Translations under genes and position numbers: made by a program
Notes under the pieces: model-generated
Told to the model about the DNA's origin: nothing
Databases searched by the model: none
What the model saw: the letters and a program-made list of their open reading frames with translations, nothing else
Assembly (NCBI GenBank): GCA_977020255.1
Contig: CDROCS010005070.1
Location: forward strand, 186,001 to 250,000
Direction: 5' to 3'
Source of the DNA: Obrimoposthia wandeli
Lineage: Eukaryota
Length of the DNA stretch: 64,000 bases
In this document: positions 33,600 through 64,000 of the stretch, in pieces
Layout of the letters: every line of letters begins with the position of its first letter
Position numbering within the stretch: the first letter of the stretch is position 1

Positions 33600-35232
33600 C
33601 GAACCAGTTTTGTCTGTGATGTTTCATAACCTTATGGGTTATGATATGAATCATATTCTAAAATATGCTGACTTAAAATATAAATCCTTTTCAATTATGC
33701 CTAAATCAAGTAAAAGTTCATGTCCCTCCGTATAGAGATGAAGAGGGGGACATTGAAATTCAATGATTCATACCTTTTTACAACGTCACGTCTTGGATCT
33801 TTAGTTTCATACTTGTCAAGTTGTCTTTATACTACACAATACCTAAACCCTAATATTGCAACAAGTAAGGCAGTATTTCCCTATAAATATATCAGTGGCG
33901 TTGATAGGCTCATGGAGAGTCAGTTACCAGCTAAATCTGAGTTTCAAACCCGAGTCCCTGATCAGCAATATAATGAAGCCCTATGGATGTGGACCGTATT
34001 AGGGTGTAATACTATTAAAGATTACATGCTCGAATATATGAAACTTGACGTATTTGTTGTGTGATGTTTTTGAGGCCTTTAGACAGAAAGTAAGGGATGA
34101 TGATAATTTAGAGGCGCTCAATTTCTTCAGTATTCCCGGTCTCAGTTGGGCTAGCGCATTAAAAACGTTAGAGTAGGACGTACATTTTTTTGCATGATCC
34201 CGAAATGTATAACATGTTTGAGGCAGAGATCCGGGTAGGGATGACTTTCATCAATAAACATTAAGTTAAAACAACAGATGAAACATTCCTCCTATACATT
34301 GACACCAATAACCTATATGACTGGGCCTTGAGTCAACCGTTAACACATACAGATTTTACATGGATATATGATGGTTTGAAGCGATAATTTACGGTAATAT
34401 GCAGGAGTAAAGTCTTAAAAAACATGGATACTTGATGGAGGTTGATTTACACATACATATCAGTATCCATGATAAACTTGATGAATTACCGATTGCTCCT
34501 AATAGAGAAATCCCTCCCGGCTCAAAAGCTTCAAAGCTGTTGATGACTAATGAGGATAAAAATAATTACATCATACACTCACAACTACTACAATTTTACT
34601 TTTTTATGCGAGCAGAAATTAAACAAGTACATAGAGCAATAAAGTTTCATCAAGCTCCGATATTTAAAACGTATATTGACATCAATAGCCGGAATATTGG
34701 TCAAGCTGTATTGAACTTTTCTAAAATACATATGTACCAACTACAATACAGTGATCTTGACCGGTATCGTAAGCAATATCATGGTGATATCAACATAGTT
34801 GCAATGGATACAGACTCGTTTTTCTTAGAGTGTAAGCAAGTAGATACAGATATTCTCTTAAAACAAATTATTAAAGATCAGATGTTAGATACCAGTAATT
34901 ACTCACTCACATACGAGTTAATTAACGATTCTCATCAAAATGTGATTGGAAGGTTTAAAGATGAAAGCAAGTGGACAGTGCTTTATGATGAATAGGTATT
35001 TCTGAAACTGAAATGCTACTCCTTGAAAACGAGTATGAGGGCTAAGGTTATCTCCTTTAAACAAACTGACATCAGGCATGAGCATTTCATCAAGAGTTAT
35101 ATAGATTATGAGATTATAACTGCCGGTCAGACGCGTATTTTATCGTGTTATCATCAATTATTTACAATGTTTAATGATAAAATTGCGTTAAAGTGTTATG
35201 ACGATGAAAGGGTTTGGATTGAGAAAATCTAA
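33600..35232 (+). pseudogene. Polinton/Maverick pPolB remnant 2 (degenerate, internally deleted)
   Basis: VMFHNLMGYD, LKFNDSYLF, KAVFPYKYI, DYMLEYMKLDV, NFFSIPGLSWASALK, LYIDTNNLY.WALSQPL, IGQAVLNFSK, AMDTDSFF, LDTSNY, IGRFKDE, CYDDER. Confidence 0.9.
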
Positions 35233-39919: not shown

Positions 39920-41218
39920 CAGGGTGTCCCATAACGAATTACCCATGTTAAAAAACATTATAAAACGATTATAAATTCGATCAAAATCTTCAAGATTTTT
40001 AACTTTGCATGGAGTATATATTTGCTACACATCCTTATTGTTTCGTTTTACTATATCAATTTTATCAATAAGATATGGCGCCAGAAACAAAACGTGCCCA
40101 AATTGTTGCATTAAAAAATGCTGGAATTTCTAACAGTGATATAGTAAAGCAGCTGGGTGTGTGTCGCAAAACTGTTTTCAACGTCTGGAAACGACATAAT
40201 GAGGAGGCTACAACATTTGAGAAACCTAATCTAGGACGAAAAAGGTCAATCCGTACAAAACGAGTTGCTGAAGCTGTGATGAAACGAATCAAGAGGGATC
40301 CCATAGGAGCATGAGAAAATCTGCAAAAGCTATGAATATCTCAAAATCCTCAATGCATATGATATTTAAAAAGGATTTACTGATGACTGCATACAAAAAG
40401 CAATCTAGGCAGTTAATTTCAGGTGCTTCCAAGAAGAAACGGCTCAACAGGGGCATAATTATGTTAGCAGAAATGAAGCGCGCCGGCGAAAAAAAATGTA
40501 TCTGGTCTGATGAGAAGATCTTTACCGTGGAGGCAGTTGCTAATAAGCAAAATGATAGAATTTACGCACGTCATTCTACAGATCTTCCCGAAGGTAGCAG
40601 AACACATTTCAAGCGACAGAAACCAGCTGGAGTCATGGTGTGGGCTGCAGTTGCTTCTGATGGGTCTAAGTCCCCTCTGATATTCGTCGATGAAGGTGTT
40701 AAGGTGAACACTAATGTATACATCAAAATTTTGGATGAAAACGTGTTACCCTGGATCACTAGCACATTTGGAGAGCATTATGTATTTACTCAAGATGGTG
40801 CACCGGCTCACACGTCTAATTTGATTCAAAAATGGTGTAAAGATCATTTTTCTGAATTCTGGGACAAGAACGTATGGCCTCCCTCAAGTCCAGACATTAA
40901 CCCAATGGACTTTTCTATTTGGTCTATCTTAGAGAGCAATGTTTCCTCTAAATCATACTCAAATGTAGCTGCTCTAAAATAAGCCCTTCTTAACACATGG
41001 TCCAAGTTTGATGAGGAGGTGGTGCGGCGATCTTGTCAATCAGTGACCACTCGTTTACAGGCTATGGTGAAAGCAAGAGGCGGCCATTTTGAGATTTGAC
41101 TATTTTAATATATTGGTAAAATATATGTAAACGTATGGTCCGAGTTTTATTATTCTATCTTAAGTTAACATTGAATAATTTAAAAAAAAACATGGGTAAG
41201 TCATTATGGGACACCCTG
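39920..41218 (+). mobile_element. Tc1/mariner superfamily, maT (DD37D) element, full length
   Basis: TA-flanked TIRs CAGGGTGTCCCATAA..TTACCCATG / CATGGGTAA..TTATGGGACACCCTG; transposase inside. Confidence 0.95.
40075..41099 (+). pseudogene. DD37D transposase with one frameshift (~40305) and one premature stop (40980-40982)
   Basis: HTH N-terminus; WSDEK, QDGAPAH, SPDINPMD with 37 residues between the 2nd and 3rd Asp. The frame continues past the TAA to ..ARGGHFEI*. Confidence 0.92.
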
Positions 41219-43039
41219 TATTATTGCATCTTCATGATATAGTAATGATATTAAATTTATTATGAAATGTCAAATACATTTGAGGATCAAAATATAAAAT
41301 GGGATAGATAATATCTTGCGGGCATCTAAAACTTAATAACTCTGTAATTTCTCCAATTCAAAATTAGAAACAAAAAATCAATAGTATAAAAAAAATTCAA
41401 GAACCTTGTTAAATCAAAGTATCCCAAATCTATTAGCTAACATGGTCTTAATACCTGTAAAAAACTATCCATTCTGTACCATAAAATTAAAACAACAACA
41501 AAATGTCTGAAAATATCATAGAAACAACAAAAGGTTTATAAGTAATTTGAACCCTTAAGCAATTAAATTAAAATCTTTTGAAATGTCTCTCTAAAATAAA
41601 ACAACATTTCAAAATTTTGTAACTTTTAAATCCAAATTATCCTCTAGACATTCTTATTAAACTGTACAACTACAGTAAGAAATCAATACTATTGAAATAA
41701 CGCTGTCGATTTTAAAGAAAATCATTCTGGAAATTATGAAATTTCTTGTAAATTTTTTTTTAGACAAATGGAAGAAAACTCCACTATCAATAAGTCGACA
41801 AACGACAAAGGGTTGAAATATTGCTTCCCTATGTTATTTTATATTGTTACTTTAGTTGTACAAATATCATAAATTTGGTGGTTTTTGTACATTTTGTACA
41901 TCACTACTGCTAATAATAATATTATTAATAATGTTAATGAGGATTATTATCGCAATGCTCATAAATTAGTTCTTCTTCATTTTCAAGAACAATTCAACCA
42001 TAGAATGACACATGAAATCCTGGTCGGGAAATTGGACTAACAAAAACCGGGCCTCAATGTAAATGCACGCATATTGTGAGTCAAGTTTTGTCGAATGTGT
42101 ACGCGGCACCGAGAACGTTACATTGAAGAGAGAAGTATGGCCAAGTAGTAGTAGGGTTAGTGGTAGCAGTATCAGCAGAAAATTCAGTAGTAGTAGAAAG
42201 AAGCTGAAAAAGATTTATTGTTATTTCGTACACTAGAAGAGAAGAATCCCATATTTTCTTGCTGTATACCCATGGATTTATGGGTAAATAGGAAAAACCA
42301 AGCCAGAAATCCAGATAAGAGGGAGTATGGAGCGTGAAAACGAAGCATACACGTGCATTGAATGCTGGGTTTTCTTAGCTTCCGAAATTGTCAAAGTGTA
42401 GCAGCCCAAAATCTGGGTCAAAACGTTGCGCAAGACTGCAGTTTTCAGAGCGCAGAAAGAAGCTTCAAATAATCGCTAGAAGAAAGTTTTAGTGACAATA
42501 AAATCGGCGGAGACCAAACATTATCATTAGGAATATTAATATTATCATTATACTGTCATTGTATTTGGAATCTTCCTCCCACACTCAGATCTCCAAATCG
42601 GATTGTCGATTTACTGCAGTGTGTCTTGTGGATCGGTCCCCTTCGTCTTGTCAGCTCGATTTGGGAACGGGAAACGACAGGCCCAGACCAAACGCTTCTC
42701 AGCCAATCAACTCAGCTGGGAGATTTCTCTAGCAGAGATCATTTGCGAATTAAATGACTTCTGCTGGCTTGTAGATGATGTTCTTCCTGCTTAGTTGCAT
42801 TTCTTCAGCAGCCTTGTGTTGTGTCGTACTGAAAAATGCAGCAGCAGTGCGGATAATAACTGTGAGTGTGTGTGTATGTGTGAGAGATTGCCTACTTGCT
42901 TATTTGACTGTTTAGAATATATCGACAGACGTGTGTGTCCGGCTGTGTATGGATGTAAACCGTCCAGCGCATTTCATGGAGCAGCCGATTATATAAAAGG
43001 TGCAAAAAGTTACTGTAACAAGCATTTTAGGTTTAAGCA

Positions 43040-46000
43040 ATGCAACAAAATTATGGCAGCGTTTCTCAGTTGGTCGCTGACAATTGTGTAACTGCCAATA
43101 ACTACTCGGTATTGTCTCTTCTCGACCAGGATCATCCACTCGACCTTTCTAAATGTGTCCGGAAATCTCTGGACGTAAACAACAATAGTAACATCGGTGC
43201 TGCTAGCGTCTCCCAGAATGCCAACATCAGCAATCCACTTCTGGAAGCGCCATTCGTCATGCAAAAACTCTTCGAAGAGCTCCTGAAACGCCGCACGGAC
43301 TGGCCCTCTCCCTACCCCGGGTCCAGCAACAGTGGCTTCTTCCCACCACTTCCACCGCCACCTCCGCTCGACCCGCGTCTCCAATGGACCTCTTTGTGGC
43401 ATCGACTGATGAACAGTGTCGCCCAGCAGCACTCGACACCGAACAGCAGCGGCAAACTACAGAACCCACAATTGGAGACTCGCCGTAGACCGACTTTGTC
43501 ACCGCGCTCCCTCACAAAACAGCGTCACAAGCGAACCAAGGTAACCGACTCGAGACTCTTGAAACGTGCTACAATCGGGGGTGAGGATCCTAGCATCGAT
43601 TTCAGCAGTTCGGCGCTGATCAACGAGGATGAAGACTACGAAAATCGGTCCATCCTGTCTCGGTCACCTTCGGTTAACGACTCCGAACTGGATGATGAAC
43701 CCAACAACCTCAACCATAATTCCAACATAAGCCAATCATCTTTGACTGCCGCCAGTTTGTGCTGTAATGATCCTAAGAAATATACATTAACTCCGGTACA
43801 TTTGCGCAAAGCCAAACTCATGTTCCTTTATACTCGTTATCCCAACTCCCAAATGCTGAAGAGCTTCTTTCCCGACATACTGTTTTACAAACAAAATACG
43901 GCTCAGTTAGTCAAATGGTTTAGTAATTTTAGGTAATTTTTACGTTTTATTAATTTGGAAATATTTTCAGTTCACGTAACCAATCAGAATTTGATTTAAA
44001 GGTTTTTTACTTTTTCAGAGAATTCTACTACAGTGAAATGGAAAAGGCTGTTCAAAGGTACTTATCCGGCGGTATCAAGTTCTCAACTGAACTCATTGTT
44101 ACTGAAGACAGTGAACTATTCAAAAATCTGATGACACACTTTAACAAAAATAGCCAAATTGAGGTCAGTACTGCAAAATTGCTTCAATTTTGTATCTTCT
44201 TGAGAATTTCAACCATTAAAATAGTCGAAAAATAACAGATCAGATAAAAATTTATGAAAATCCAATTTGATCTAAACAAATAAGAATTCATTTCAATTCA
44301 TTTTAATAATTCTGGCGAATGAGAGAATGTAAAATTTAGAAAATTAGCTGAAGAAATTAAAGAAATTTTTCAAAAGTTTTATTAAAATATACTATCACTA
44401 TTTTTTTAGAAATATAAAATTCAAAAAATTGATCAATTTTAACTTTTTCAAAATTTATGAATTTATAATGGCAGATATCAAGGTTTAGACGTTTTTTTAA
44501 ATAAACCGTATTTAAATATTTTAAAAAATCTGTAGTTGTCTATTTGATTTATTTTTAAATTTTGATTATCTTATAATTATTGTGGCCATTGAGAAGAAAT
44601 TTTATAGACTAAATAAAGTATAGTAAAAATCATTGTAAAAACAGGAAAAATATTGTCTTTATAACTTACATAATCCATGTTAGCAGCATGTACCATGTAG
44701 CAATGATATTCGGAATTATTTAAATAACGAACTTTAGCTTGATTTTACTTTTTTTTCAAACTTTACAATTGTGAATAAAAGTCTTAATAAAAATTAATTT
44801 AATTGAAATTGGTCATATAGATTGATCAATTTTATAAAATCAAATTTTAAACTGAAAAACTGGATATTGGGACTCTACTAGTATGCATTGTGCTAAGAAA
44901 TCGGATTATAAAGAAATGGTTACAAAGGTCTTTTGGGAATATTCTAAGAAATTTCTGATTGACATACTTCAAGTAAACAATACAATTATTTTCATTTCAA
45001 TGGTCGAAGAAAACAGTTCTGGACAATATTTTATTGTGTTTTCTCACGCTAAATTGTAGGAAATTATGTTGGTTTTCAAAGTTAATATTGTAACAAATTT
45101 CTATCCAACATTGAAAATAGTTTGAATACAGAAGATTAAATCTTAAATATAAAAAAGACTCTGTTTATTTGTTTTATATATGTCTTTGGATGTATTATGC
45201 AATGAATTTTCATATTAAACTTATAACTTATTTCAATGATTTTATTTTAAAAAATTAAACATTTATAAGAGAATAATCTGAAGTTTCATTTAATCTAACT
45301 CATATTAATTTTATAGGTTAATGATATTAAATTAGCGAATTTATGCTTAAAATTTGCTAAATACATCTATTAAAATAGAAAATCCGTAACAGAAAACGAT
45401 AAAAGGTCTAGTTTTAAGAATGATATAATTTAATTTTTTAGCTTATTTAAATATATGATTTTAAATAAGTCAAATATAATTTTTCTATTTGAAAATAAAA
45501 TTAACTATATTAAAAGTTATATTATTTGTTAAATAATAATAAAATAAATTTGAACTTTAAAATAAATAAAATGTAATTATATTATTAACTTTAGTTTTTT
45601 TATATGAAACAATTAGTATAACCTACACGAATAATAGTAGAAAATAATCTTTTCAAAATCATTTTCGTTTAAAGGTATGACAATTTAAGGACATTTAAAC
45701 AAAGATATTTTAATCTTTAAGTTTAAAATTTCTCATTTTTGCAAGTGTATAGAAATTATGAATGAAAAAATTATGCCAGCATTAATATTTAGGGGTATAA
45801 TATTTAAACTGTTAATAGATAAATTAAATTGTATCAACAAAGTTTTTTTACAACTCAACATAAACAGAATATACAGGGTATTTCTGAATAGCCACATACT
45901 TTTGTTTTAACATTATTTTAGATTTTTGTAAATAATGCTTTCTTTAATAATTTTAAGATAAATAAGTGATATATCTTATAGTATGTAGATTAATAAATAA

Positions 46001-52758: not shown

Positions 52759-53275
52759 TGTTGGGGTTTCTATACGAAACTTGGTATAGATCCTCTTGAG
52801 TGCGGAGGGCCCCAACGTGAGTTCGATTAGAAGCAGGTCTTAAAGTTGGTCGTGGCCTACTTAGTGTTATTATTGCCTATCTCTTGTACTATCTGAAGGT
52901 ATTTGATTAGATGTCTCTTAGTCTGAAGGGTGCAAAAACAACTTGTTCTAATGTAGGAAATTGTTTATTTGAAATTCACGTAACTAACACAACGATACGT
53001 TTATGTACGTATTTCTAAAAAGTATGATAAAATTCCTAAAGGACTTCTGTAAGTCTCTACAAGAAGTGGGGATGAACCACGTATCGATTTTACGTTCAGG
53101 TGATTAAGCTTTTAGGTTTATTCTTCTTACTTAGGTTGGTTAATCTATAACGCAACTCTCTTAAAATTCTTCGCTCCTACTTCTGATCTTTAGATAAAGT
53201 TTCTTGATCCCTTAACTCTATCTGTTGTGTGTTTGACCCCAAATTGTCCACTGTGAACAATGGGTCTCCTAAAAC

Positions 53276-53674
53276 CTAATTGTCAAGATGACAATGAAAA
53301 ACTTACTCCTAATTGTCAACTATGGACAATGAACGAGCCGAATTGTCAGCTAGGGACAATGAGTCTTACCGAATTGTCAACTAGGGACAATGAGTATTTA
53401 TCCGAATTGTCAACTAGGGACAATGAATGAACCTAATTGTCAGCTAGGGACAATGAATCTTACGGGCAAAAAGTCTGGGTATGATTCCTAATTGTCGCTG
53501 GGGACAATGAATAAATGGCTGATCTTAATTACCAACTAGGGGCAATGATTTTGTTAAAGAGTCGGAAATCCTAATTGCCAGCTAGGGGCAATGAATATGT
53601 TTAAAATATGTTAAACAACCTAATTGCCAACAAGGGGCAATGAATTTATCCTAATTGCCAACTAGGGGCAATGA
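53276..53674 (-). repeat. Array of ~11 short palindromic units (ATTGTC-N7-GACAAT / ATTGCC-N7-GGCAAT) with variable spacers, inside the LTR
   Basis: Units begin near 53276, 53309, 53339, 53370, 53403, 53432, 53487, 53525, 53571, 53619, 53651. Confidence 0.9.
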
Positions 53675-53798
53675 ACGGTTTTAGTTGGTGTTCTTACCAG
53701 TTACTGCGACTAGTGGGACGTCCGATGCAGGATCCGTAGGTCTTTCGGAATCTTCTTCGAAGCAGCGATTATTACTTGTGAGAGGTTTGAGTACACGC

Positions 53799-54220
53799 TT
53801 GAATACACTTTGACTTTGACTTTTTGGACACTTGAATACACTTTGACTTTGACTTTTTGGATACTAAACAATTATTTTTATTCACAGCAATTATTTTTAT
53901 TCACCTTGAATACACTTTGACTTTGACTTTTTGGATATTAAACAATTATTTTTATTCACAGCAATTATTTTTATTCACCTTGAATACACTTTGACTTTGA
54001 CTTTTTGGACACTAAACAATTATTTTTATTCACCTTGAATACACTTTGACTTTGACTTTTTGGACACTAAAACAATTATTTTTATTCACAGCAATTATTT
54101 TTATTCACCTTGAATACACTTTGACTTTGACTTTTTGGACACTAAACAATTATTTTTATTCACCTTGAATACACTTTGACTTTGACTTTTTGGACACTAA
54201 AACAATTATTTTTATTCACC
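53799..54220 (-). repeat. Tandem array (7 cores; units 33-75 bp) inside the LTR
   Basis: TTGAATACACTTTGACTTTGACTTTTTGGA core repeated 7 times with variable CAATTATTTTTATTCAC sub-repeats. Confidence 0.9.
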
Positions 54221-54230
54221 TGAAATCACT

Positions 54231-54331
54231 ACTTACCGAGAACTCAATTGTTCGATTTGTGGTCCAGTCGACTCTGGCTGTTGAATCCCGTATTTGTGTT
54301 TTTGAATTGAATGAACCTATCTCCTTATATA
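54231..54331 (-). promoter_or_regulatory. LTR promoter TATA box (54331-54324) and downstream 5' splice donor G|GTAAGT (54237|54236)
   Basis: TATATAAG then G|GTAAGT occur in the same order in LTR A (13376-13369; 12970) and LTR B (35771-35778; 35997). Confidence 0.65.
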
Positions 54332-55001
54332 AAGGCAGTCTTGTCAATCAAATGACAGCTGATTCGTATCGCTGGAAATTTCTTCTTACTTAAGATCTAA
54401 AAATCAATAAATCCTATTGCACTTAAAATGTGCTTACCTTGACGTCTCTTGATTGACGTGACTAATTGATTTCCTAATTTAATGGCTTCTCCTTAATTAA
54501 TCTTAACAATTGTCCTTTTTGGGTTAATTAATTTAACTTTTATACATTTTCACATTATACACGACCTTCGTGGTCCTCCTAATTTTTACCCTAAATTCCA
54601 CTAATTTTAATTCTAACTAAAATTAATATTTTAATTTAATTTTCAACCTTGTTTTCAAGGATTTTTATTTTAGTATTTAATCGACTAAATATTTAAATTT
54701 CTTAATTCTCAAACCTAACATACCTCGGGGGTTCCAAAAAAGTTACGTCCCCGGAACGTATCGATTTTACTTAATAAGCCTTTGGCTGTTGATTTTAGGT
54801 TCATCCCTACAAAATCAATCATTCAACTTCAACAAACATGCCCAAAAAATTTTCCTCAAAATCCCGGTTTTTAGTGGGAGACATAATATATAATTTGGAG
54901 CAAGTCTCAAACCATACATTATTACTTATACACAACTAAAAATTTACACACAAAATTACATGCATAACTAAGGGTTAGGAAGGAAAGAAGGGAGGAAAGG
55001 A

Positions 55002-55532
55002 TCAATTGTCATATGTCAGGTCAATTGTAATTGTCGGCTGGTTCCGACTGGCCAGGTAGCGCAGAACCTGCTCCAGGGGTAGGTCGGGAAAGGACGGACT
55101 GTCCCCGTTGTACAGGTGTAGTTGTTGGCTCCGGGTTAGGTGTGGACTCTCGATGAACAGGTCGAAATGCTGCCCGTTTATGGCGTGATTTTCTATCCAG
55201 TGCCGTCTGGCCTGGAACCACGAGTGGCAGTCTCGACTAGACCGCCATCTCTCGCGGATGCCCAGTTGTGTGTCGCGCCGGCGTGCGAGACACACGTAGC
55301 ATTGGCAATGTATGCCACCAATGCAGCTGGCAGGCGATCGGGTGCCCTTGTGCCTTCCACGGCTCTGGAGCGTCCATTTGGCAAAGGGTGTCCGGCACAG
55401 TGGACATGTGATATGGCCGGGGGGTCGAGCCTTGGTCCACAAATAGAGGCACTCCTCGTGGAATTTGTGACGGCAGCCGACAGGGGATGCTGATACCGCC
55501 CAAATCTTCTCCATGCATACAGAACACTTCAT
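55002..55532 (-). CDS. RING-H2 protein 3 with extra Cys motif and C-terminal extension (176 aa from MKCSVC)
   Basis: CSVC..CRHKFHEEC..W..CPLC, then CIGGIHCQCYVC; acceptor TTTTCTTATGCAG directly before the ATG. Confidence 0.85.
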   Translation of the reverse strand: MKCSVCMEKIWAVSASPVGCRHKFHEECLYLWTKARPPGHITCPLCRTPFAKWTLQSRGRHKGTRSPASCIGGIHCQCYVCLARRRDTQLGIRERWRSSRDCHSWFQARRHWIENHAINGQHFDLFIESPHLTRSQQLHLYNGDSPSFPDLPLEQVLRYLASRNQPTITIDLTYDN

Positions 55533-55872
55533 CTGCATAAGAAAACAACTCCTTTCAATTTGGGGTTCACTGTTCTCATTGTTAATTTAAATTTTATTTC
55601 AAAACGAATCCTTAGTTATCTAATCCTACCGAGTTTTGTTTCGATTTTAGGCATGTTTACGCATTCACACTAAGCATAAAAATTGTCTTTTTTAGAAATT
55701 CAGTATAATAATTACAATTTCAGTTAAACATCATACATAAAAATGGTAATGGTCAATTTACAGTTCACAAGATTATATAATTATGATTACAATTATGGTA
55801 GCTAATTTATCGCGGTATGCGATACACAGGGTAGTTCATGATATCACGTTCAAGTCAGAAAGTTACCTTCGA

Positions 55873-56178
55873 TTATTGTTGGGGATTGGGCTGGCCTGTG
55901 CTTCGCTCCTCCACGCAGAACGAGCACCAGCAATCGCAGATGGTTTTCCAGCAGTGTACGATGGGTACCACTGCTTGGAGGCTGTCCTGGTTGTACACGT
56001 AGTGTACTGAGAAGGTCGCTCTGCACATCGGGCAGGTTGGGAAGTCGAGGGGATTGTTGCTGTTTGCGATGGGGATCCACGTCTCGAGGCATTCGACGTG
56101 GAAAAGGTGGTCGCAGTTGTTGGGCTTGGTGTAGAAGTCCACGATGCTCTCGTAGCAGATGGAACATTCTCCAGACAT
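55873..56178 (-). CDS. RING-H2 protein 2 (101 aa)
   Basis: CSIC..CDHLFHVEC..W..CPMC, then CWKTICDCWCSFC. Confidence 0.9.
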   Translation of the reverse strand: MSGECSICYESIVDFYTKPNNCDHLFHVECLETWIPIANSNNPLDFPTCPMCRATFSVHYVYNQDSLQAVVPIVHCWKTICDCWCSFCVEERSTGQPNPQQ

Positions 56179-56238
56179 TACTGTGGGAGGGTTGATGTTG
56201 AATTTGGGCTCGATTGAGGACTGGTGGTTGTGTGATGT

Positions 56239-56538
56239 TTACACAAAAGTGGTCTGATTTTGTCGATCTGACAAACAGTAATAACACCAACACTCTCCGA
56301 AATTCTTCCAACAGAATACCACCTGTACATATACATCCTCTTGGTTGGGTTCTAACATGATGAATCTTGCGAATTGTCTTCTGCATACAGGGCAACAAGG
56401 GTATGTTGGATGTCCGAACTGTCCATAAGTTCTGATCCATGTCGATAAACATTCCTCGTGGTGTAAATGGCTGCAGGTTTCGGGTCTTGTTCTTCGTTCG
56501 GTTAGATCTTCCAAACATATTGGGCATTCTTCGGACAT
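56239..56538 (-). CDS. RING-H2 protein 1 (99 aa from MSEECPIC)
   Basis: CPIC..CSHLHHEEC..W..CPVC, then CWKNFGECWCYYC. Confidence 0.9.
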   Translation of the reverse strand: MSEECPICLEDLTERRTRPETCSHLHHEECLSTWIRTYGQFGHPTYPCCPVCRRQFARFIMLEPNQEDVYVQVVFCWKNFGECWCYYCLSDRQNQTTFV

Positions 56539-56661
56539 TCTAAATACATGATGATGATTAATTTCTACATGAGTTTTATATATTTCTACTATTTGTACAA
56601 TCACTTCTAGATATTTCTAAACATTTCACACACTAATTTATCTACAACCTCCTCTGACTCA

Positions 56662-57711
56662 TCATATCTTGATGGGAGGCGGAGGTAAGGGTCGCAATTC
56701 CACTTCCTCCATGATGGGTGTGTCACAGCATCGCAATCTTTCGCATTTTCGTCGTATTCCTGGGCATACTTGACTGCCTTTTACGCACACGATTGTCAAT
56801 AGAACCACTGCTGTTGACACTACGGCCATTCCAATTAGGGCATTGACCGCTGTTATTCCGCTGTCTGATGATTTATAATCATACTTCATTTTGTTGTTTG
56901 TCGGTTCGAATGACATTTCCATGGGTTTTGATCGGTTTCCATGTATTATGTCCGATTTTCTAAAAATTCGGGGATTTGGGTGTTTTGTTTCTGATGGAAC
57001 AGGTATTATTATTTTGGATTGGAAATGATGTTTGGGATCTAGTGGGATCGTTCCCCTCACTCTTGTCCTCTTAATAATTGTACTTTGGTTTCTGGGATTG
57101 AGCTCTTTTTCTTTCGCTTCTGTCTTTGTTCTGATCACTGTCGGTTTTTTGGAATGTCGTTTACTTTCGTTTACTTTTGCCTTCTTTCTGACTAGGATTG
57201 GCCTTTTGGGAATGATTTTCCTGGGTTTGATACTTATACCGGATCTACGAAATCGACGGTTCTGGTATCTTAGAGTTATGTAGAATATTTCACCTGTTAT
57301 TATCATGATTATGGTCGAGGTCTCTGTAGTATTACTGGAAATTCGATTACACAGACATTCTGTGTTAAAATGTGGTACTAACATTTGGCTTTGGATTTCG
57401 AATCTGATTCCGCCATCTGGGTTGGGACACATTACTGTTACTCTGTCGGTCTCTAGCAATCTGAAAAATATCCTAACGGAATTCCATACGGCTTTACGTC
57501 GTCTACCTGTGATCATAATCCTGTCGACAATTTTCCAGATGCGTTCATCTCTAGGCAATATTAATGACTTTGTTCGGATACTTTGGATAATCCGCTTCCT
57601 CTTCGATATTGTTATCCGTAGGTATAACACTTTTTCATGATACAATAATATTAAATTGTAATCGGGTGTATTTTGGTCGATTTTTATTCTGACCTGTCGG
57701 ATGACATACAA
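56662..57711 (-). CDS. Basic ectodomain + C-terminal TM + Cys/Pro-rich tail; probably the C-terminal part of the preceding ORF
   Basis: 349-aa open frame, open upstream to ~57780; sequons NTT/NES/NQS/NRS; RFRR; TM ITAVNALIGMAVVSTAVVLLTIVCV; tail CC..PLPPPP. Confidence 0.75.
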   Translation of the reverse strand: MYVIRQVRIKIDQNTPDYNLILLYHEKVLYLRITISKRKRIIQSIRTKSLILPRDERIWKIVDRIMITGRRRKAVWNSVRIFFRLLETDRVTVMCPNPDGGIRFEIQSQMLVPHFNTECLCNRISSNTTETSTIIMIITGEIFYITLRYQNRRFRRSGISIKPRKIIPKRPILVRKKAKVNESKRHSKKPTVIRTKTEAKEKELNPRNQSTIIKRTRVRGTIPLDPKHHFQSKIIIPVPSETKHPNPRIFRKSDIIHGNRSKPMEMSFEPTNNKMKYDYKSSDSGITAVNALIGMAVVSTAVVLLTIVCVKGSQVCPGIRRKCERLRCCDTPIMEEVELRPLPPPPIKI

Positions 57712-57772
57712 TTTCTGATCGATATTGTCGGTTGCTGACGTCTGTAGATGAATGTCTACTACGTGATTTGTT

Positions 57773-60700
57773 TTAGAAGGGGGTTTCTATGTATACTGCC
57801 CGTATTACGTCTTGTCTCCATTTACTGATCATGATCTCATAACTAGCCTTGGTAGTGGTGATTTGTATGATCAGCATGATTCCTATGATCGTTCGATTCC
57901 TAAACTCAGGAACTTCAATGAAACAAGTCAAATTACTCATATAGTACGGTCTTTCCTCGATATGTTCATATATCGTTGGCTGGTACTCTGGTGCTGGTTC
58001 ATCTAGAAATGGTGGTCTTGGTATAATTGTGTTGAATTTTTGTAAGTTCATTTGACCTGTTCGTCTTGCGAGATCATGACGTTTCTTTTTTGATCTCGAC
58101 TCTATCTTTGTACAACAAAACAAGATGAGTAATATTAATATTATAAATCCAATGATCAGTGCGAGTATTGGATTAATCAATTCTAGAATACCGTAACGTA
58201 CTGCTGGTATTCCTTTACTCTTGATGGTTAATATTTTAAATTTGTGTGCACTTTGGTTGGATATGTCACTGAGAAGTACTATTTTAGTTTGTCCAAATGT
58301 GTAGTCTTCACATGTGACAACATCAATTCCATAATGTCTATTAAGTGTTTTCATTTCGGTCGCTGGAACTATACATATCCGTCCTGGGCATCCTTTTACA
58401 CACATGATCATTACAGCTTTACTGTAGGATGTCTTGATTATTTCTAGGGTGTTGTCTAGATTTCTCAAATGTAAATTATATTCGGATAGTGTCATCAATT
58501 CGGCTTTACTGGTTGGCATGGCTTGCAGTACCAATCCAATTACTACTCCATAAATCAATCCTTGTGCAACGGTGCACAGGGCCTTGACTGACCTTTTGCA
58601 AAGGGTTTTAATTATCAATCGTTTAAGAGATATCTGTTTCTGATTGGATCGTTTTGTTGTCTGTCGTTGTTTTGACATCTCCTCGATTCCATCTCTTCCG
58701 ATAATCAACTGTACCGGTTTACCTTGTATCGTCAACTTTCCCAATCCATTTTTGGCGGACAAGCATGTTTTATGTCCTTCCATCGTTTCAATTATTACTC
58801 TCTTACTTCCATACTCACGTGTTTTGATGACATCGCCGTCGAATATATACGTTGGTCCTTTTGTATCAGCATCTTTTTGTATTTCCTTTACAACTCGTTT
58901 TCTTCGCTTGCATCCGGCGAATGTTGTTGATATTCGGTCAAGTGTGCGCTGTCGGTCAGCTTCGTAATCTATTCGAAATTGATTCAGTATTCTGTTTTGT
59001 GGGTAAAATATCGCTTCATTTACTATGTTGTCCTCGATCCTTTCGTCTAGATACACAAGCACTTTGTTCGTTGGTCCATTTGGTCTTTTCATCTTTACAA
59101 ACTGAAATCTTTTACTGTCGGTTCTCATAGATCGAAGACATTTTCGGATGATCCACACATCAATTAGTCCTAACAACACTAATAGCATCATCAGTGCCGG
59201 CGTATGGTACTGTATGGTGTAGTTGTGGATATCGATGAACCAGGAACTATTTCCGTGGTTGGAGCCTATCTCCTGTGCTCCCGTTATCGGCATTAAACAA
59301 CTTAACAAGCCTATCGCTAGCAATCTTTGGTATTGAAAGCTGGGCACTGTTGTTGTAGCTTCATTTGTTTCTCGTTGTTGTTTCCTCTTTTCGGTGTATT
59401 TCTCTATTTCTCGAACGAGTAACGGTTTGAATTCCGTATTCGGTCTATTCTGTTTGATGTAGACCATCGCTTCTTCTGGCGTGTGACCATGGTACTCTAC
59501 CAACAAGGATACACCTATGGTAGGCGCTAACATTGTACCTTTTTTCTGATATATCAGAACGCCGTTTCCTTCTGTGACTTCAGCTTGGATGGTTTGAGTC
59601 AATTTCGTCAGATGTTGTTGTGCATCGTTTATTTCTCGATTGGAAGCATGTATGTATCGAGTGGTGTCGTCTTCAGTATTTTGACACAGACTAATTATCT
59701 CGTTTCCGACTTCAACAATGTTGATTACTCGGTTGATACTGTGGAACTTTAATCCAGCAGTATCTATATCTCCTGGATGACATAAAAATACTTTTGGCAT
59801 TATCTGTGTAATTTTGTCGACTCCGGCTAAGAATAACCCGGTCAACGATAATGCTTGGAGGAAATTCTTTTCCTTTGGGTCCTCAGGAATGTCGTCCATC
59901 CGTCTTTGTTCTTGCAACAGAAGTTGGTAATTTGCCAACTGTCCCAAAAAATTAAGATTTGGGTTTGCAATACTTCTTCTCTCCTGTAGGTATTTTAGCG
60001 CTTCTAGTACCTGCATTCGTCTAGTCTTTATTAGGTATGCTAATACTAGAGTTGCTGATCGAGAAATTCCTTTCTGACAATGTACCAACACTTTTCCTTG
60101 GTTCCGGAGTTCTCTGTGAAGTATTTCGTTTGTTTCTACGAACCATTCGAGAAGATTAGCGTCCATTGAGTCTTTTACTCTTAATGTCATAGCTCTGATC
60201 GTCTGATATTGTGATTTGTGATTCATTGTAACGTTGATCACGTATGTTATCCCTTGTTCCAACAGTTTCTTTTCATCTGTTGCATCCTCCACATTTCCGA
60301 GGTATAACTTACCTGGAATGATCTCACTCATTGGTGGCATTAATTCTGACTCTTCAAGTTTTAGTCTTTCTAATCTCTTCTCTATTTGTTCGTCGATGTT
60401 GGATAGTTTCGCCAGTTTCTTTCCTCTCAGCATTCGTATTGCTGGAGAGATATTCATCTTTGTCTCTGATGTCTGTTCCTTTGTTGAGTCTTCTTCCGAC
60501 TCGGTCTCCTCTGCAGATTTAATTCGTCTTTCTTGTATATTCTGTTTCACGAATTCTATGTTTTGTCTTTTTCTGCTCTCTTTAGCGAATTCAATCTCCA
60601 TGGTTCTTCCGAATCGCTCTATTATGTTATCTTCGGATTCTGTTGATTCTGTATCGTTACTCTCCGGTTCGCTGTCTTCACTAGACTCGCTCGAAGGGTA

Positions 60701-61687
60701 TTCTGGTATGTCTGTCTGGACTGAAATTAATGAAGGGGTTAGAATAATTGGATTGATTTCCCCTTCGTATTTGTGAATCGGATACGGTATTACACTATCT
60801 TTAAGTATTTCAACTTGGAACTGTGCTCCATAGCACATGACAATTGTTTCTAATTTACCCATGATGGACAATCCATCAAAATAGGTAACATTCAGCTTAG
60901 ATATCGGTGTCTTCGCATAATTAATTAAGTTTACTCGTATCTCAGTTGATGACGGCCATCGATTTTTTAGTAAAATTATAATTTCGTCGTTTATCGATGT
61001 GATCACACTTGGCGCGGATGATACTATTTCAGCATGATATTTTGGCTGGATTGAGTTGGTCACTTGTTCTCGGATCATATTGATTCTTAGTGGTTTTTTA
61101 TTTTTAGCTTCCCACTTCCGGTATCCGCTGTCAATGCGTAACTCTGCCGTTGCTTTGATGATTTTATTGTTAGCCACTTCCGGTTGGGTCGGCGAATGAA
61201 ATCCTTCTATTACGCTCAACCTTACAGATACTTCCGTTTGATCTGTATCTAACCGGTGAGATTCTGGTATACAACATACAATTGTCTTTCCGTCAAAGTA
61301 TTTGGTGTCCATCTGACAAATTATCTTTTCAGTGTCAGCGTCGATTAAATGGACTCTCATGATATCTCTTTTCCCATGTGAATTACGTAATACCATTATT
61401 ACATCGTGGTATTCTTGTTTGAGTCTTTTTGGTGTACCATGCAGTATGTGACCACCGGCCGGTTCCTTCTCTTCCTGACTGGCTAGTCCTGCTTCAGTAC
61501 TGTCATAGTTCTGCCATGCAACTATGTTTGGTGTCAATGTGATTTCGATTATCACTTTCTCAGTCGTAAACACATTGGAATTTTGATAAAGTGCTGCGAC
61601 TAATGTATTTCCGTCGTAGTATGACACTCTAAGTTCGCACAGAAATTCGTTTGTCAGTGCATCTTTCACAATGACTTCTTTAGCCAC
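57773..61687 (-). CDS. 1304-aa cargo ORF: Ig/IPT-like repeats, dual-specificity phosphatase, pseudophosphatase, multiple signal/TM segments
   Basis: YFDG/YYDG repeats; SEIIPGKLYLGN..D..VLVHCQKGISRSATLVLAYLI..NPNLNFLGQL (DSP); second DSP-like fold with VLIYQKKGTMLA. The called start is a GTG, and the frame overlaps the integrase end. Confidence 0.88.
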   Translation of the reverse strand: MAKEVIVKDALTNEFLCELRVSYYDGNTLVAALYQNSNVFTTEKVIIEITLTPNIVAWQNYDSTEAGLASQEEKEPAGGHILHGTPKRLKQEYHDVIMVLRNSHGKRDIMRVHLIDADTEKIICQMDTKYFDGKTIVCCIPESHRLDTDQTEVSVRLSVIEGFHSPTQPEVANNKIIKATAELRIDSGYRKWEAKNKKPLRINMIREQVTNSIQPKYHAEIVSSAPSVITSINDEIIILLKNRWPSSTEIRVNLINYAKTPISKLNVTYFDGLSIMGKLETIVMCYGAQFQVEILKDSVIPYPIHKYEGEINPIILTPSLISVQTDIPEYPSSESSEDSEPESNDTESTESEDNIIERFGRTMEIEFAKESRKRQNIEFVKQNIQERRIKSAEETESEEDSTKEQTSETKMNISPAIRMLRGKKLAKLSNIDEQIEKRLERLKLEESELMPPMSEIIPGKLYLGNVEDATDEKKLLEQGITYVINVTMNHKSQYQTIRAMTLRVKDSMDANLLEWFVETNEILHRELRNQGKVLVHCQKGISRSATLVLAYLIKTRRMQVLEALKYLQERRSIANPNLNFLGQLANYQLLLQEQRRMDDIPEDPKEKNFLQALSLTGLFLAGVDKITQIMPKVFLCHPGDIDTAGLKFHSINRVINIVEVGNEIISLCQNTEDDTTRYIHASNREINDAQQHLTKLTQTIQAEVTEGNGVLIYQKKGTMLAPTIGVSLLVEYHGHTPEEAMVYIKQNRPNTEFKPLLVREIEKYTEKRKQQRETNEATTTVPSFQYQRLLAIGLLSCLMPITGAQEIGSNHGNSSWFIDIHNYTIQYHTPALMMLLVLLGLIDVWIIRKCLRSMRTDSKRFQFVKMKRPNGPTNKVLVYLDERIEDNIVNEAIFYPQNRILNQFRIDYEADRQRTLDRISTTFAGCKRRKRVVKEIQKDADTKGPTYIFDGDVIKTREYGSKRVIIETMEGHKTCLSAKNGLGKLTIQGKPVQLIIGRDGIEEMSKQRQTTKRSNQKQISLKRLIIKTLCKRSVKALCTVAQGLIYGVVIGLVLQAMPTSKAELMTLSEYNLHLRNLDNTLEIIKTSYSKAVMIMCVKGCPGRICIVPATEMKTLNRHYGIDVVTCEDYTFGQTKIVLLSDISNQSAHKFKILTIKSKGIPAVRYGILELINPILALIIGFIILILLILFCCTKIESRSKKKRHDLARRTGQMNLQKFNTIIPRPPFLDEPAPEYQPTIYEHIEERPYYMSNLTCFIEVPEFRNRTIIGIMLIIQITTTKASYEIMISKWRQDVIRAVYIETPF

Positions 61688-63057
61688 ATCTGTCGGTTGT
61701 GTTTTTCGAAAACAACTATTATCTCTTCGTCTTCTTCTAATATCTCTTGTGGTGCGATGTGTCGGATTACTTCCTTTTCCTCTTGGTACTTCATTCTGAG
61801 CATACCAATTCTCGCTGGTTTTTCCTTGCTACCACTCGTCATCATGTTTATGTAGTTCCGATCACTTACCATTCGTGTAAGTTTAATGGTATTGGTATTC
61901 GATTTCGATTTCTGTGATCTTAACTCATATCGTGACGCATTATCTTTATTTGGTACTAATTTGCATCGATTTGCATGTACAATCATCGGTTCCTTGTTCC
62001 GATTCTCTTCGTTGATTACTTTCAAATTTGTTGAGGTTGTCTGGATCACCTTGTATGGTCCTTTGTATGGTCTATGAAGTTTAAACGATAGACCTGGTTC
62101 GATGACTGGATAAAATATCATCACTTGATCTCCGACTCTAAATTCATGTGGTTTTGCTTTTTTGTCGTATTGTTCCTTGTAACCTTCTTGATTGAATTTC
62201 AACTTCAATCCGGCTTTGGTCCAAGCATCTTGTAACCTTTCCTTCATAACGACAATGTATTGTTCAGTTTCTAGATACTGAGATGTTGGCTCGGTCCACT
62301 CCAGATCCATTGGCATATTGTTCTGTCTGAGATACATCAGATAGAATGGTGTGTGACCCGTCGCCTCTCGAACTGAATTCCTGTAAGCATATAAACATGA
62401 AGGTAAATATTTATCCCAATCCTCTTGCTTGTCGGAGCAATAGGATTGTACCATCATACATAAAGTTTTATTAAACCTTTCTACCAGACCATCTGTCTGT
62501 GGGTGATATGGTGAAGTTTGCAACTTCATGATTCCGAATATCTTCGATACTGCTTTTATGACTTCTCCAGTGAAGTTCTTACCTTGATCTGTTAACAACT
62601 TTCTAGGCACTCCGTATCGAAATATTATCTCTTCCACTAAGATTTGCGCTATTGTTTCAGCTTTCTGGTTCTGCATGGGATATGCTTCTACCCATCTCGT
62701 CATGTAGTCCGTAAATACTATGACGTACTTGTTTCCTTTACTTGATTCTCTCAATGGTCCCAATATATCCATCGCTGTGAATTCCATTGGTGCCAAGGGA
62801 ACTGGCATTGGTTTCAGTGGAACTTTAGTACGAGTTCCGGTGTCTTTTCTGGTTAAACATACTTTACATTGTTTACACCATTGTTTTATGTCGTCTTCCA
62901 TACCATCCCAATGGTACTTCTCTTTGATTCTGGCTATTGTCTTTCGCCCTGACAGATGTCCTCCTAGTGTTCCGTCGTGATACTGGATCATCACTGCTGT
63001 TTTCAATGACTTCGGAATTACTACTACTATCTTTCCGACATTATTGACAATATACAA
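61666..63057 (-). CDS. Gypsy integrase (HHCC, DDE, GPY/F) with a C-terminal extension; frameshifted from RNase H
   Basis: HDGTLGGH..CKQC, AMDILG, LTDQG, DGLVERFNKTL, PYKGPYKV. Confidence 0.95.
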   Translation of the reverse strand: MYIVNNVGKIVVVIPKSLKTAVMIQYHDGTLGGHLSGRKTIARIKEKYHWDGMEDDIKQWCKQCKVCLTRKDTGTRTKVPLKPMPVPLAPMEFTAMDILGPLRESSKGNKYVIVFTDYMTRWVEAYPMQNQKAETIAQILVEEIIFRYGVPRKLLTDQGKNFTGEVIKAVSKIFGIMKLQTSPYHPQTDGLVERFNKTLCMMVQSYCSDKQEDWDKYLPSCLYAYRNSVREATGHTPFYLMYLRQNNMPMDLEWTEPTSQYLETEQYIVVMKERLQDAWTKAGLKLKFNQEGYKEQYDKKAKPHEFRVGDQVMIFYPVIEPGLSFKLHRPYKGPYKVIQTTSTNLKVINEENRNKEPMIVHANRCKLVPNKDNASRYELRSQKSKSNTNTIKLTRMVSDRNYINMMTSGSKEKPARIGMLRMKYQEEKEVIRHIAPQEILEEDEEIIVVFEKHNRQMWLKKSL

Positions 63058-63068
63058 GATTCCTTCTT

Positions 63069-64000
63069 TTATCGAGTATTTTTCGTCATTTCATCGTTTA
63101 GATCTCCTTTCACCAACAATTCTTTGATTAGACTCAGTTCTTCATCTTCTGTCTGTTCTTTGATGATTTCTTTGTCTATTTTACCCGTCTTTAGCAAAAT
63201 CGTCAGTAGATTTGCTTCTCCTTTTTGGTCATTGGCTCCATCTTCTTCTGGAATTATGTTTCCTTTTTCATCTACATTTGTCAATCTCGATAAACAATCT
63301 GCGTTGCCATTCGACTTTCCGGTTCTATAACGGATTTCTAGATCGAATTCGGCCAATTTTAGAAACCATCTGTTTAATCTACTCATCTCATCTCTATGTT
63401 TATATAAGAACTGTAGTGGTTTGTGATCTGTATACAGGAATACTTTTTGTCCTAGCAAATAGTGTCTGTACTGTCTACATGAATACACTATGGCTAGACA
63501 TTCCTTTTCGATAACAGAGTATCCTCTTTCGGCTCTGTTTAATCCTCTACTTGCATACTCAATGACGTGTTCTCTTCCTTCGTCATCCTCTTGTCCCAAT
63601 ACTGCTCCTACAGCATAGTTACTTGCATCTGTCATGAGTATGAACTGTCGGTTTATATCTGGAAACGCTAATATCGGTGTTTTTATCAATCTTTCTTTTA
63701 AATGCTCGAACGCTTGTTGGGCTTCTTCTCCCCATATGAACTTCTCATCTTTTCTCGTCAACTTTCTCAATGGTGTTGCTATATCTGAAAAATGTTCAAC
63801 AAATCGTCTATAATAATTCGCAAGACCTAAAAAACTCTGTATCTCCTTAACAGTCTTTGGTGCTAAATGCGCTTTTACTTTCTCGATCTTTGCCGGATCA
63901 GGTCGAATGCCTTCTTTCGATACTATATGTCCTAAAAATGTTACTCGCTCTTTAGCCCATTCGCATTTTGTAGGTTTAACTTTTAATTTAGCGTTTTCCA
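63069..64000 (-). CDS. Gypsy Pol: RT C-terminus/connection and RNase H (5' truncated by window)
   Basis: Open frame from the window end: KCEWAKERVTFLGHIVSKEGIRPDP..SFLGLANYYRRFV..TDASNYAVGAVL..EKECLAIV..YTDHKPL..NADCLSR. Confidence 0.96.
   Translation of the reverse strand, partial: ENAKLKVKPTKCEWAKERVTFLGHIVSKEGIRPDPAKIEKVKAHLAPKTVKEIQSFLGLANYYRRFVEHFSDIATPLRKLTRKDEKFIWGEEAQQAFEHLKERLIKTPILAFPDINRQFILMTDASNYAVGAVLGQEDDEGREHVIEYASRGLNRAERGYSVIEKECLAIVYSCRQYRHYLLGQKVFLYTDHKPLQFLYKHRDEMSRLNRWFLKLAEFDLEIRYRTGKSNGNADCLSRLTNVDEKGNIIPEEDGANDQKGEANLLTILLKTGKIDKEIIKEQTEDEELSLIKELLVKGDLNDEMTKNTR

Follow-up and report, generated by a model that had tools for sequence, protein, structure and literature searches.

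Long terminal repeat (LTR) retroelements are taught to make one Env from an open reading frame (ORF) of its own and to cut their pol polyprotein with their own protease. Can the pol end of such an element instead encode a chain of further membrane proteins that the host releases? This question is raised by the minus strand of a 64,000-nucleotide stretch of the Obrimoposthia wandeli genome (assembly GCA_977020255.1, contig CDROCS010005070.1, positions 186,001 to 250,000), hereafter called the window. An original prediction, made from the letters alone, had described positions 56662-59326 as three tandem units of signal peptide, ectodomain and transmembrane (TM) segment, processed by signal peptidase in the manner of flavi- and bunyaviruses. 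We find that this region forms the C-terminal 890 residues of a ~5,500-residue gag-env-pol polyprotein encoded by a giant, Burro-like Ty3/gypsy LTR retrotransposon of ~23 kb. The single ORF, its domain order, six hydrophobic segments and their conservation are seen directly, and we put at about 0.6 the probability that host signal peptidase cuts after three predicted internal signals (SP1 to SP3), which would release three type I membrane proteins.

The assignment to Ty3/gypsy follows from TG...CA LTRs, the order protease, reverse transcriptase (RT), RNase H and integrase (IN), and a gag located upstream; total length was ~23 kb in all four copies measured. One natural copy carries a frame of 5,497 codons open from gag to TM3, with anchors for gag, env, BIR, RT, IN, phosphatase, SP1, TM1, SP2, TM2 and TM3, its SP3 differing by one substitution. 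The order along the ORF is gag, class III env, BIR, RING, protease, RT, RNase H, integrase, phosphatase, pseudo-phosphatase and the three membrane units. Pfam searches identified one CCHC in gag, a BIR (PF00653, E 1.8e-10), two aspartic protease domains flanking BIR and RING, and, between gag and pol in the same frame, a Monjiviricetes-type class III fusion glycoprotein (PF24664, E 1.8e-94). This Env opens with an internal signal immediately before the PF24664 ectodomain. Since a separate class III Env sits upstream of pol, the three units are extras beside it: the original prediction was right that they are not a single retroviral Env, but an ordinary Env is nevertheless present. All 40 scored matches of the region in the same genome are 96-100% identical, and all 150 matches of unit 2 among 10,963 candidates reach at least 95%, which gives at least 150 near-identical copies. 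LTR pairs are 98-100% alike, indicating recent insertions. Many copies carry breaks, mostly private to single copies.

The window copy is one of the broken ones. Its minus-strand ORF 57773-61828 (1,351 aa) contains SP1, TM1, SP2, TM2 and SP3 and continues for only 23 codons after SP3 before a stop, whereas TM3 and most of ectodomain 3 lie in another frame, in ORF 56662-57786 (374 aa). A gap at this place occurs in 2 of the 52 copies that span it, and SP1 to TM3 are in one continuous frame in 13 of the 20 best-matching copies, so the family encodes a single polyprotein and the window copy is a broken member. The break is a mutation or an assembly error; reads from four runs of one sample gave very deep cover and no row at the break. 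A programmed frameshift was rejected, since 50 of 52 copies are free of a gap at this position. The continuous three-unit chain that had been proposed is therefore a property of the family and not of the window copy, from which unit 3 itself would be made as a short stub only. The six segments proposed all agree with the minus-strand translation in position and residues; the basic RNR of SP3 begins at 57901, outside the 57892-57845 first given. The junction downstream of integrase is also broken in the window copy and in 3 of 23 copies; it is unbroken in the other 20, a count biased by the 16 copies picked for long frames, and most loci selected by an env profile give continuous matches across it. 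A family-level stop after integrase was rejected on these two grounds.

We next examined hydropathy in P0001, the post-integrase frame of an unbroken natural copy (1,722 aa, of which residues 826-1722 are the membrane region). All seven hydrophobic 11-residue windows with a Kyte-Doolittle (KD) value of at least 2.3 fall within the six segments, and none occurs in the first 834 aa; elsewhere such windows number one in a 2,659-aa env-pol piece, where it is the Env TM, and none in a 1,498-aa gag piece. When residues 826-1722 were shuffled, 2 of 1,000 shuffles reached at least three signal-like and three TM-like segments, a test that measures the clustering of hydrophobicity and not signal function (in the real sequence four segments were called signal-like, namely SP2 and SP3 plus the end of TM2 and that of TM3). 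Basic residues had been pointed out after TM1 and TM2 (RKCLRSMR; a Cys-Cys with KKKR); the net charge is +4 to +5 after each TM, and short segments alternating with long ones so followed fit a signal and a stop repeated three times. Signal calls come from a heuristic rule of our own; SP2, SP3 (3.44) and the Env signal pass it, and SP1 scores 2.38 (a value computed by hand) against a threshold of 2.4.

Comparison of copies indicates that the membrane region is under purifying selection. The ratio omega was computed from variants common to at least two of 55 copies, a set that takes in the subfamilies retrieved with the env profile. The procedure ignores transition bias, and long frames or top scores were the criterion by which many of the copies had been picked. 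By segment, omega ranges from 0 to 0.46: 0.24, 0.04 and 0.20 for SP1, SP2 and SP3; 0.20, 0.00 and 0.21 for TM1, TM2 and TM3 (the shared changes in TM2 being 0 non-synonymous and 8 synonymous); 0.26 and 0.18 for ectodomains 1 and 2, and 0.22 and 0.41 for the head and stalk of ectodomain 3; and 0.15, 0.21 and 0.46 for cytosolic domain 1, tail 2 and the C-terminal tail. Small segments hold few events, with p 0.12 for SP1 and for the C-terminal tail. The phosphatase and pseudo-phosphatase give 0.09 and 0.06, and a control frame that overlaps other ORFs of the element gives 1.06. All three signals had been said to obey the rule of a small residue at -3 and Ala at -1, and this pair is kept in 49/50 copies for SP1, 50/50 for SP2 and 52/52 for SP3, at which positions -2 and +1 vary. 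Of the two glycosylation sequons noted in ectodomain 1 (NSS and NYT), the first is kept in 46/46 copies and the second in 34/46; the sequon of ectodomain 2 and two in the stalk are mostly kept, and two others are often lost. YEHI in tail 2, which we take to be a YxxPhi-type sorting motif, is present in 49/49 copies. The layout as a whole is retained in subfamilies down to ~81-87% amino-acid identity. Between the head and the stalk of ectodomain 3 (window ~57210-57230, minus strand), R-R-F-R is kept in at least 49 copies and presumably represents a minimal furin-type site.

A search with the integrase retrieved 18 relatives (P0002-P0019), six of 3,700-4,057 aa and twelve of 1,349-3,181 aa, with integrases 43-61% identical to that of the element and a PF24664 Env in 12 records; like the element's own, their Env begins with an internal signal. 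Behind the integrase and in frame with it, 17 of the 18 end in a signal-like segment followed by an ectodomain, a TM and a tail, P0012 being the exception (for P0008 the TM, and for P0017 and P0018 both segments, were assigned by eye). Unit 3 is the positional counterpart of this single post-integrase membrane protein. None of the 18 relatives has three units, and a phosphatase is listed in none of them. Their ectodomains are of several types: 13 consist of FN3-like two-Cys repeats, three of a small Cys-rich domain accompanied by a PPxY-type tail, and one is of another type. In each of the 13, the two-Cys repeat of ~90 aa occurs one to three times, which adds up to 25 units. AlphaFold2 applied to the ectodomains of six relatives gave two beta-sandwiches (pLDDT 59.7 overall, ~75 in the first domain), whose best matches were mostly FN3: the top Z was 9.0 (VIA, Z 9.0-7.1), FN3 domains filled most of the top 50, and a single-domain FN3 match reached Z 8.3 with an rmsd of 4.1 over 88 residues, values that can reflect a common arrangement. 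A BFVD search with the model of the relatives returned matches of low TM-score, to FN3 and tail proteins only. The two-Cys repeats are thus predicted to be tandem FN3-like sandwiches, an extracellular-type fold. In an RT-IN tree of 16 rows (P0008, P0009 and P0016 skipped), the element forms a long branch (0.84) of uncertain place. Several relatives also have a third protease-like domain after the integrase.

Homology searches with the membrane region itself returned little. Neither 5,223 candidates (30-946 aa; threshold E ≤ 0.001) nor 1.84 billion representatives yielded a homologue; PDB sequences matched at E ≥ 0.18 only, and Pfam not at all. The best match of a profile of the 25 repeat units to P0001 is weak and lies at residues 1459-1536 of ectodomain 3 (window 57223-57456), with both Cys aligned (E 0.003; 9 of 997 shuffles as good, five regions tested). 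A profile of 14 units and hhalign gave no link between the repeat and the element's ectodomains, the real score being reached by 15, 34 and 5 of 100 shuffles. An AlphaFold2 model of ectodomains 2-3 from 15 close rows (pLDDT 34.7) is unusable. ESM Atlas clusters resembling phlebovirus Gc (unit 2, 0.76-0.79) and rhabdovirus G (unit 3, 0.86) were not used, all scores being below 0.9; they probably reflect the signal/TM layout. In flavivirus and bunyavirus glycoprotein precursors, internal signals are cut by signal peptidase, and the proposed likeness to these viruses stands for this processing logic only; homology of the ectodomains to theirs was found neither in Pfam nor in PDB sequences.

These data suggest how the chain may be made. 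Because Env of the same ORF begins with an internal signal, the chain would already be at the translocon of the endoplasmic reticulum (ER) in mid-translation, the Env signal having brought the ribosome there. The enzymes and the phosphatase downstream of the Env TM would be cytosolic, SP1, SP2 and SP3 would each restart translocation, and TM1, TM2 and TM3 would each stop it. Every cleaved signal would remain on the piece upstream, SP1 thus tail-anchoring the phosphatase pair. Unit 1, of about the size of CM2/M2, would consist of a glycosylated 24-aa ectodomain, a TM and, on the cytosolic side, a loop of 188 aa that ends in SP2; unit 2 of a 109-aa ectodomain, a TM and a tail with the sorting motif, ending in SP3; and unit 3 of a 330-aa ectodomain, a TM and a Cys-rich tail. 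The internal signals and alternating topology put forward originally gain from the conservation at -3/-1, the basic residues after the TMs, the internal signal of Env and the post-integrase unit of 17 of the 18 relatives, and remain predicted features.

Several observations weigh against this scheme. The heuristic rule misses SP1 and also fires at TM ends and at two sites inside integrase and phosphatase, and hydrophobic 11-mers like the core of SP3 occur inside soluble-looking domains of P0005, P0011 and P0016. Three lumenal sequons are often lost (kept in 34/46, 41/52 and 30/44 copies), and one on the predicted cytosolic side, immediately before SP3, is kept in 49/50. Sequons per Asn number 7/27 in predicted lumenal and 31/269 in predicted cytosolic parts (Fisher p 0.04), an enrichment rendered weak by the Env ectodomain, which has 1 sequon in 529 aa. 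Ectodomain 2 finds no support in the 25-unit profile (487 of 992 shuffles as good), so that homology to the relatives' repeat is weak and concerns part of ectodomain 3 only. The limits of the omega estimates count here as well. SP1 or SP2 in particular might serve as an uncleaved anchor in a multi-pass protein of the same topology, released only by the proteases of the element, two of which are present in the ORF. SP2 scores as a full 19-residue TM (KD 2.13), SP1 falls below the heuristic threshold, and a loop 1 of just 24 aa is of usual hairpin length. We nevertheless consider an uncleaved anchor unlikely: fixed -3 and -1 positions beside free -2 and +1 are expected of a peptidase site and not of a plain TM end, and the short cores and polar, Pro- or Thr-containing c-regions resemble those of the Env signal and of the relatives' post-integrase signals.

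The charge of ectodomain 3 bears on a narrower alternative, in which SP3 is unused, ectodomain 3 is a cytosolic domain that binds nucleic acid or membrane and carries a tail anchor, and only two units are lumenal. The net +38 over the 330 aa that follow SP3 is unusual (though the corresponding value in P0003 is +20), the SP3 core is only 11 residues long, Ile-rich and Leu-poor, and the conserved sequon just before it would suit this topology. SP3 passes the heuristic rule with its -3/-1 pair invariant, however, the basic Cys-rich tail after TM3 is of the kind found in cytosolic tails, P0016 combines a similar signal with an Ile/Lys-rich ectodomain (pairwise z 3.3), and the weak match to the relatives' repeat falls in ectodomain 3, all of which makes an unused SP3 highly improbable. 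Production of the units mostly from subgenomic RNAs, spliced or internally started, each with a nearby Met and an ordinary N-terminal signal and with the pol frame incidental, is distinctly unlikely. A Met does precede the SP3 core by 16 codons, SP1 and SP2 have others 30-45 codons upstream, the three downstream RING ORFs must use some such route, and env genes of other gypsy elements are spliced. Against this, a stop between integrase and the membrane units is absent in 17/18 relatives and 20/23 copies, and a frame open over 5,500 codons points to read-through into one chain, which signal peptidase would cut anyway. As for decaying sequence of host origin, carried along passively and with hydrophobic runs due to chance, the absence of homologues among the 1.84 billion representatives and 5,223 candidates and the breaks in many copies are what one would expect of it, but the strong excess of synonymous changes among those shared largely refutes it; breaks that are mostly private and a layout preserved in diverged subfamilies leave it a negligible probability.

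Release of three proteins by signal peptidase thus being the preferred reading, their role can be considered. Since nearly every relative has a post-integrase protein, a core role is more probable than chance cargo. We favour a protein that would be made one-to-one with Env and would serve in attachment, at the particle or cell surface, as partner of the class III fusogen; units 1 and 2 would then be additions specific to this lineage, next to the host-control cargo (BIR, RING and phosphatase). An alternative is a host-modulating role alongside that same cargo. More tentatively, and in our view doubtful as a whole, an entire clade of giant gag-env-pol gypsy elements might share a second, undescribed envelope-type protein after integrase, which signal peptidase would excise from pol and which would bind the receptor as partner of the class III fusogen. 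In the present family this protein would be expanded to a set of three including a CM2/M2-like small membrane protein, that is, a multi-component envelope, and left-over signals would tether the phosphatase and the BCL2-like cargo to the ER. Within one 5,500-residue chain, four signal/TM pairs are retained by a recently active element of very high copy number, and nearly all relatives retain a second membrane protein after integrase. If cleavage occurs as predicted, retrotransposons reached flavivirus-style polyprotein processing at the ER independently, and cell-to-cell movement may require more than a fusogen. The transmission of env-bearing elements outside Drosophila, a question raised in PMC13524379, becomes testable on defined proteins.

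The element is filed as Burro-like and not as a member, the comparison with Burro being by description only. Burro/GYPSM1 are giant Ty3/gypsy elements of planarians with one ORF of 4,873-5,140 aa and a length of more than 30 kb, and, according to the portions of PMC6431247 that describe them, they share with the present element one huge ORF, a gag CCHC, an in-frame mononegavirus-like env between gag and pol, a BIR, accessory ORFs and a very high copy number. Of the ubiquitin/SUMO-like and BCL2-like domains that precede env in Burro/GYPSM1, the present element shows no more than a weak ubiquitin-like match and a BH2-like motif seen by eye. By the same description, our element differs in its length of ~23 kb, in lacking an ankyrin or MATH match, in its single CCHC and in its two proteases flanking BIR-RING; for Burro/GYPSM1 those portions mention, downstream of integrase, neither a phosphatase pair nor sets of three membrane units and three RING ORFs. 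BURRO1, a different element, is transcribed and PIWI-silenced in a planarian, as reported in an excerpt of PMC8532177. Elements of GAG-ENV-POL organization with a gB-type env are described in parts of PMC13524379 from flatworms, nematodes and bryozoans; with these errantivirus-type elements ours shares the gene order, a class III env flanked by a signal and a TM, and many copies of more than 98% identity. The main text of that paper contains none of the terms phosphatase, fibronectin, accessory or Burro, and the parts on these elements describe no second membrane protein after integrase. In the literature searched, neither a membrane protein after integrase nor FN3-like repeats nor a phosphatase is reported for elements of this kind; for Burro ORFs, the figures and supplement of Grohme et al. 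2018 may reveal membrane segments. The closest layout to unit 1 is offered by influenza C virus, in which an internal signal of P42 is cut to give CM2, whose glycosylated ectodomain measures 23 aa and is followed by one TM and a cytosolic tail (PMC3617168, relevant passages). Unit 1 is alike in its short ectodomain, TM, cytosolic part and predicted cut at an internal signal; it is unlike CM2 in that its ectodomain lacks Cys and its cytosolic part is far longer, and no sequence homology between the two was found.

The positions of the features of the element in the window are collected in Table 1.

Table 1. Parts of the retrotransposon in the window, ordered from the pol side towards the 3′ LTR
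Feature	Position in window	Strand	Remarks
RT connection/RNase H part of pol	63069-63998	-	PF17917 E 7.5e-39; element extends beyond window (gag, env, BIR, RING, proteases, RT)
Integrase	61666-63090	-	PF17921, PF00665; in frame with next part in most copies, not in window copy
Dual-specificity phosphatase domain, intact CX5R	59924-60307	-	PF00782 E 8.8e-40
Pseudo-phosphatase, approximate limits	59384-59815	-	second DSPc stretch; loss of catalytic motif read by eye
Three-unit membrane region	56662-59326	-	end part of ~5,500-residue giant ORF; holds SP1/TM1, SP2/TM2, SP3/TM3
SP1, predicted internal signal	59276-59326	-	c-region unchanged in 49/50 copies
Ectodomain 1, 24 aa	59204-59275	-	conserved sequon at residue 9; no Cys
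TM1	59147-59203	-	then net +5 in 15 residues
Predicted cytosolic domain 1, 188 aa	58583-59146	-	net +19, no sequon, no family match
SP2, predicted internal signal	58502-58582	-	long enough for a TM
Ectodomain 2, 109 aa	58175-58501	-	4 Cys, one sequon; no profile match
TM2	58112-58174	-	then Cys-Cys and basic cluster
Predicted cytosolic tail 2, 70 aa	57902-58111	-	YEHI motif; Met 16 codons upstream of SP3 core
SP3, predicted internal signal	57845-57901	-	-1 Ala, -3 Thr in 52/52 copies
Ectodomain 3, ~330 aa in unbroken copies	56860-57844	-	beta-rich head and very basic stalk
Frame break of window copy	57773-57786	-	upstream-frame stop / downstream-frame start
TM3	56782-56859	-	
C-terminal tail, 39 aa, and stop of giant ORF	56662-56781	-	Cys-rich, basic, Pro-rich
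RING-H2 ORF a	56239-56538	-	PF13639 E 5.6e-09; omega 0.43
RING-H2 ORF b	55873-56178	-	PF13639 E 7.7e-09; omega 0.11
RING-H2 ORF c	55002-55538	-	PF13639 E 2.5e-07; omega 0.15
3′ LTR, TG...CA	52759-54720	-	internal tandem repeats

The nearest solved relatives of the phosphatase are the MAP-kinase phosphatases DUSP10, 4 and 1 (PDB E 2.5e-24). The spacer of ~300 aa between integrase and phosphatase (window ~60780-61700, minus strand) shows three Y(Y/F)DG-like motifs by eye and is strongly conserved (omega 0.05, codons 45-490), with no Pfam match and no self-match in blastp. RING ORFs a and b share a frame with one stop between them, ORF c exists in two variants among copies, and all three are under purifying selection; the 229-codon frame that overlaps ORFs a and b (55850-56539, minus strand) is open in many copies and, with the omega of 1.06 given above as control, is probably a by-product. 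Before env, the ubiquitin-like match is weak (E 0.05-0.06 in Pfam). A helical domain with a BH2-like motif runs directly into the Env signal (L040:5069-5518, minus strand, outside the window), and this signal could be the tail anchor of a BCL2-like domain; the motif was recognized by eye only, and neither Pfam nor PDB sequences gave a BCL2-like match there. Ankyrin repeats were not detected by Pfam in pieces covering nearly the whole ORF, and relative P0006 gives clear matches. Elements can also lie in tandem: one copy (L033-L034, C180) directly precedes a second gag, and downstream of another (L026, C2061) a second copy is inserted in opposite orientation.

Outside the element, on the plus strand of the window, a host exon lies at 43037-43936, some 9 kb away from the 3′ LTR; the homeo-prospero domain that it encodes (PF05044, E 5.3e-22) marks the host as an animal. 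On the same strand, a DDE transposase fragment (PF13358) together with decayed, Polinton-like-looking pieces, one of which gives a weak DNA polymerase B match (E 5e-4), occupies 40272-40982, 9340-11233 and 34411-34995.

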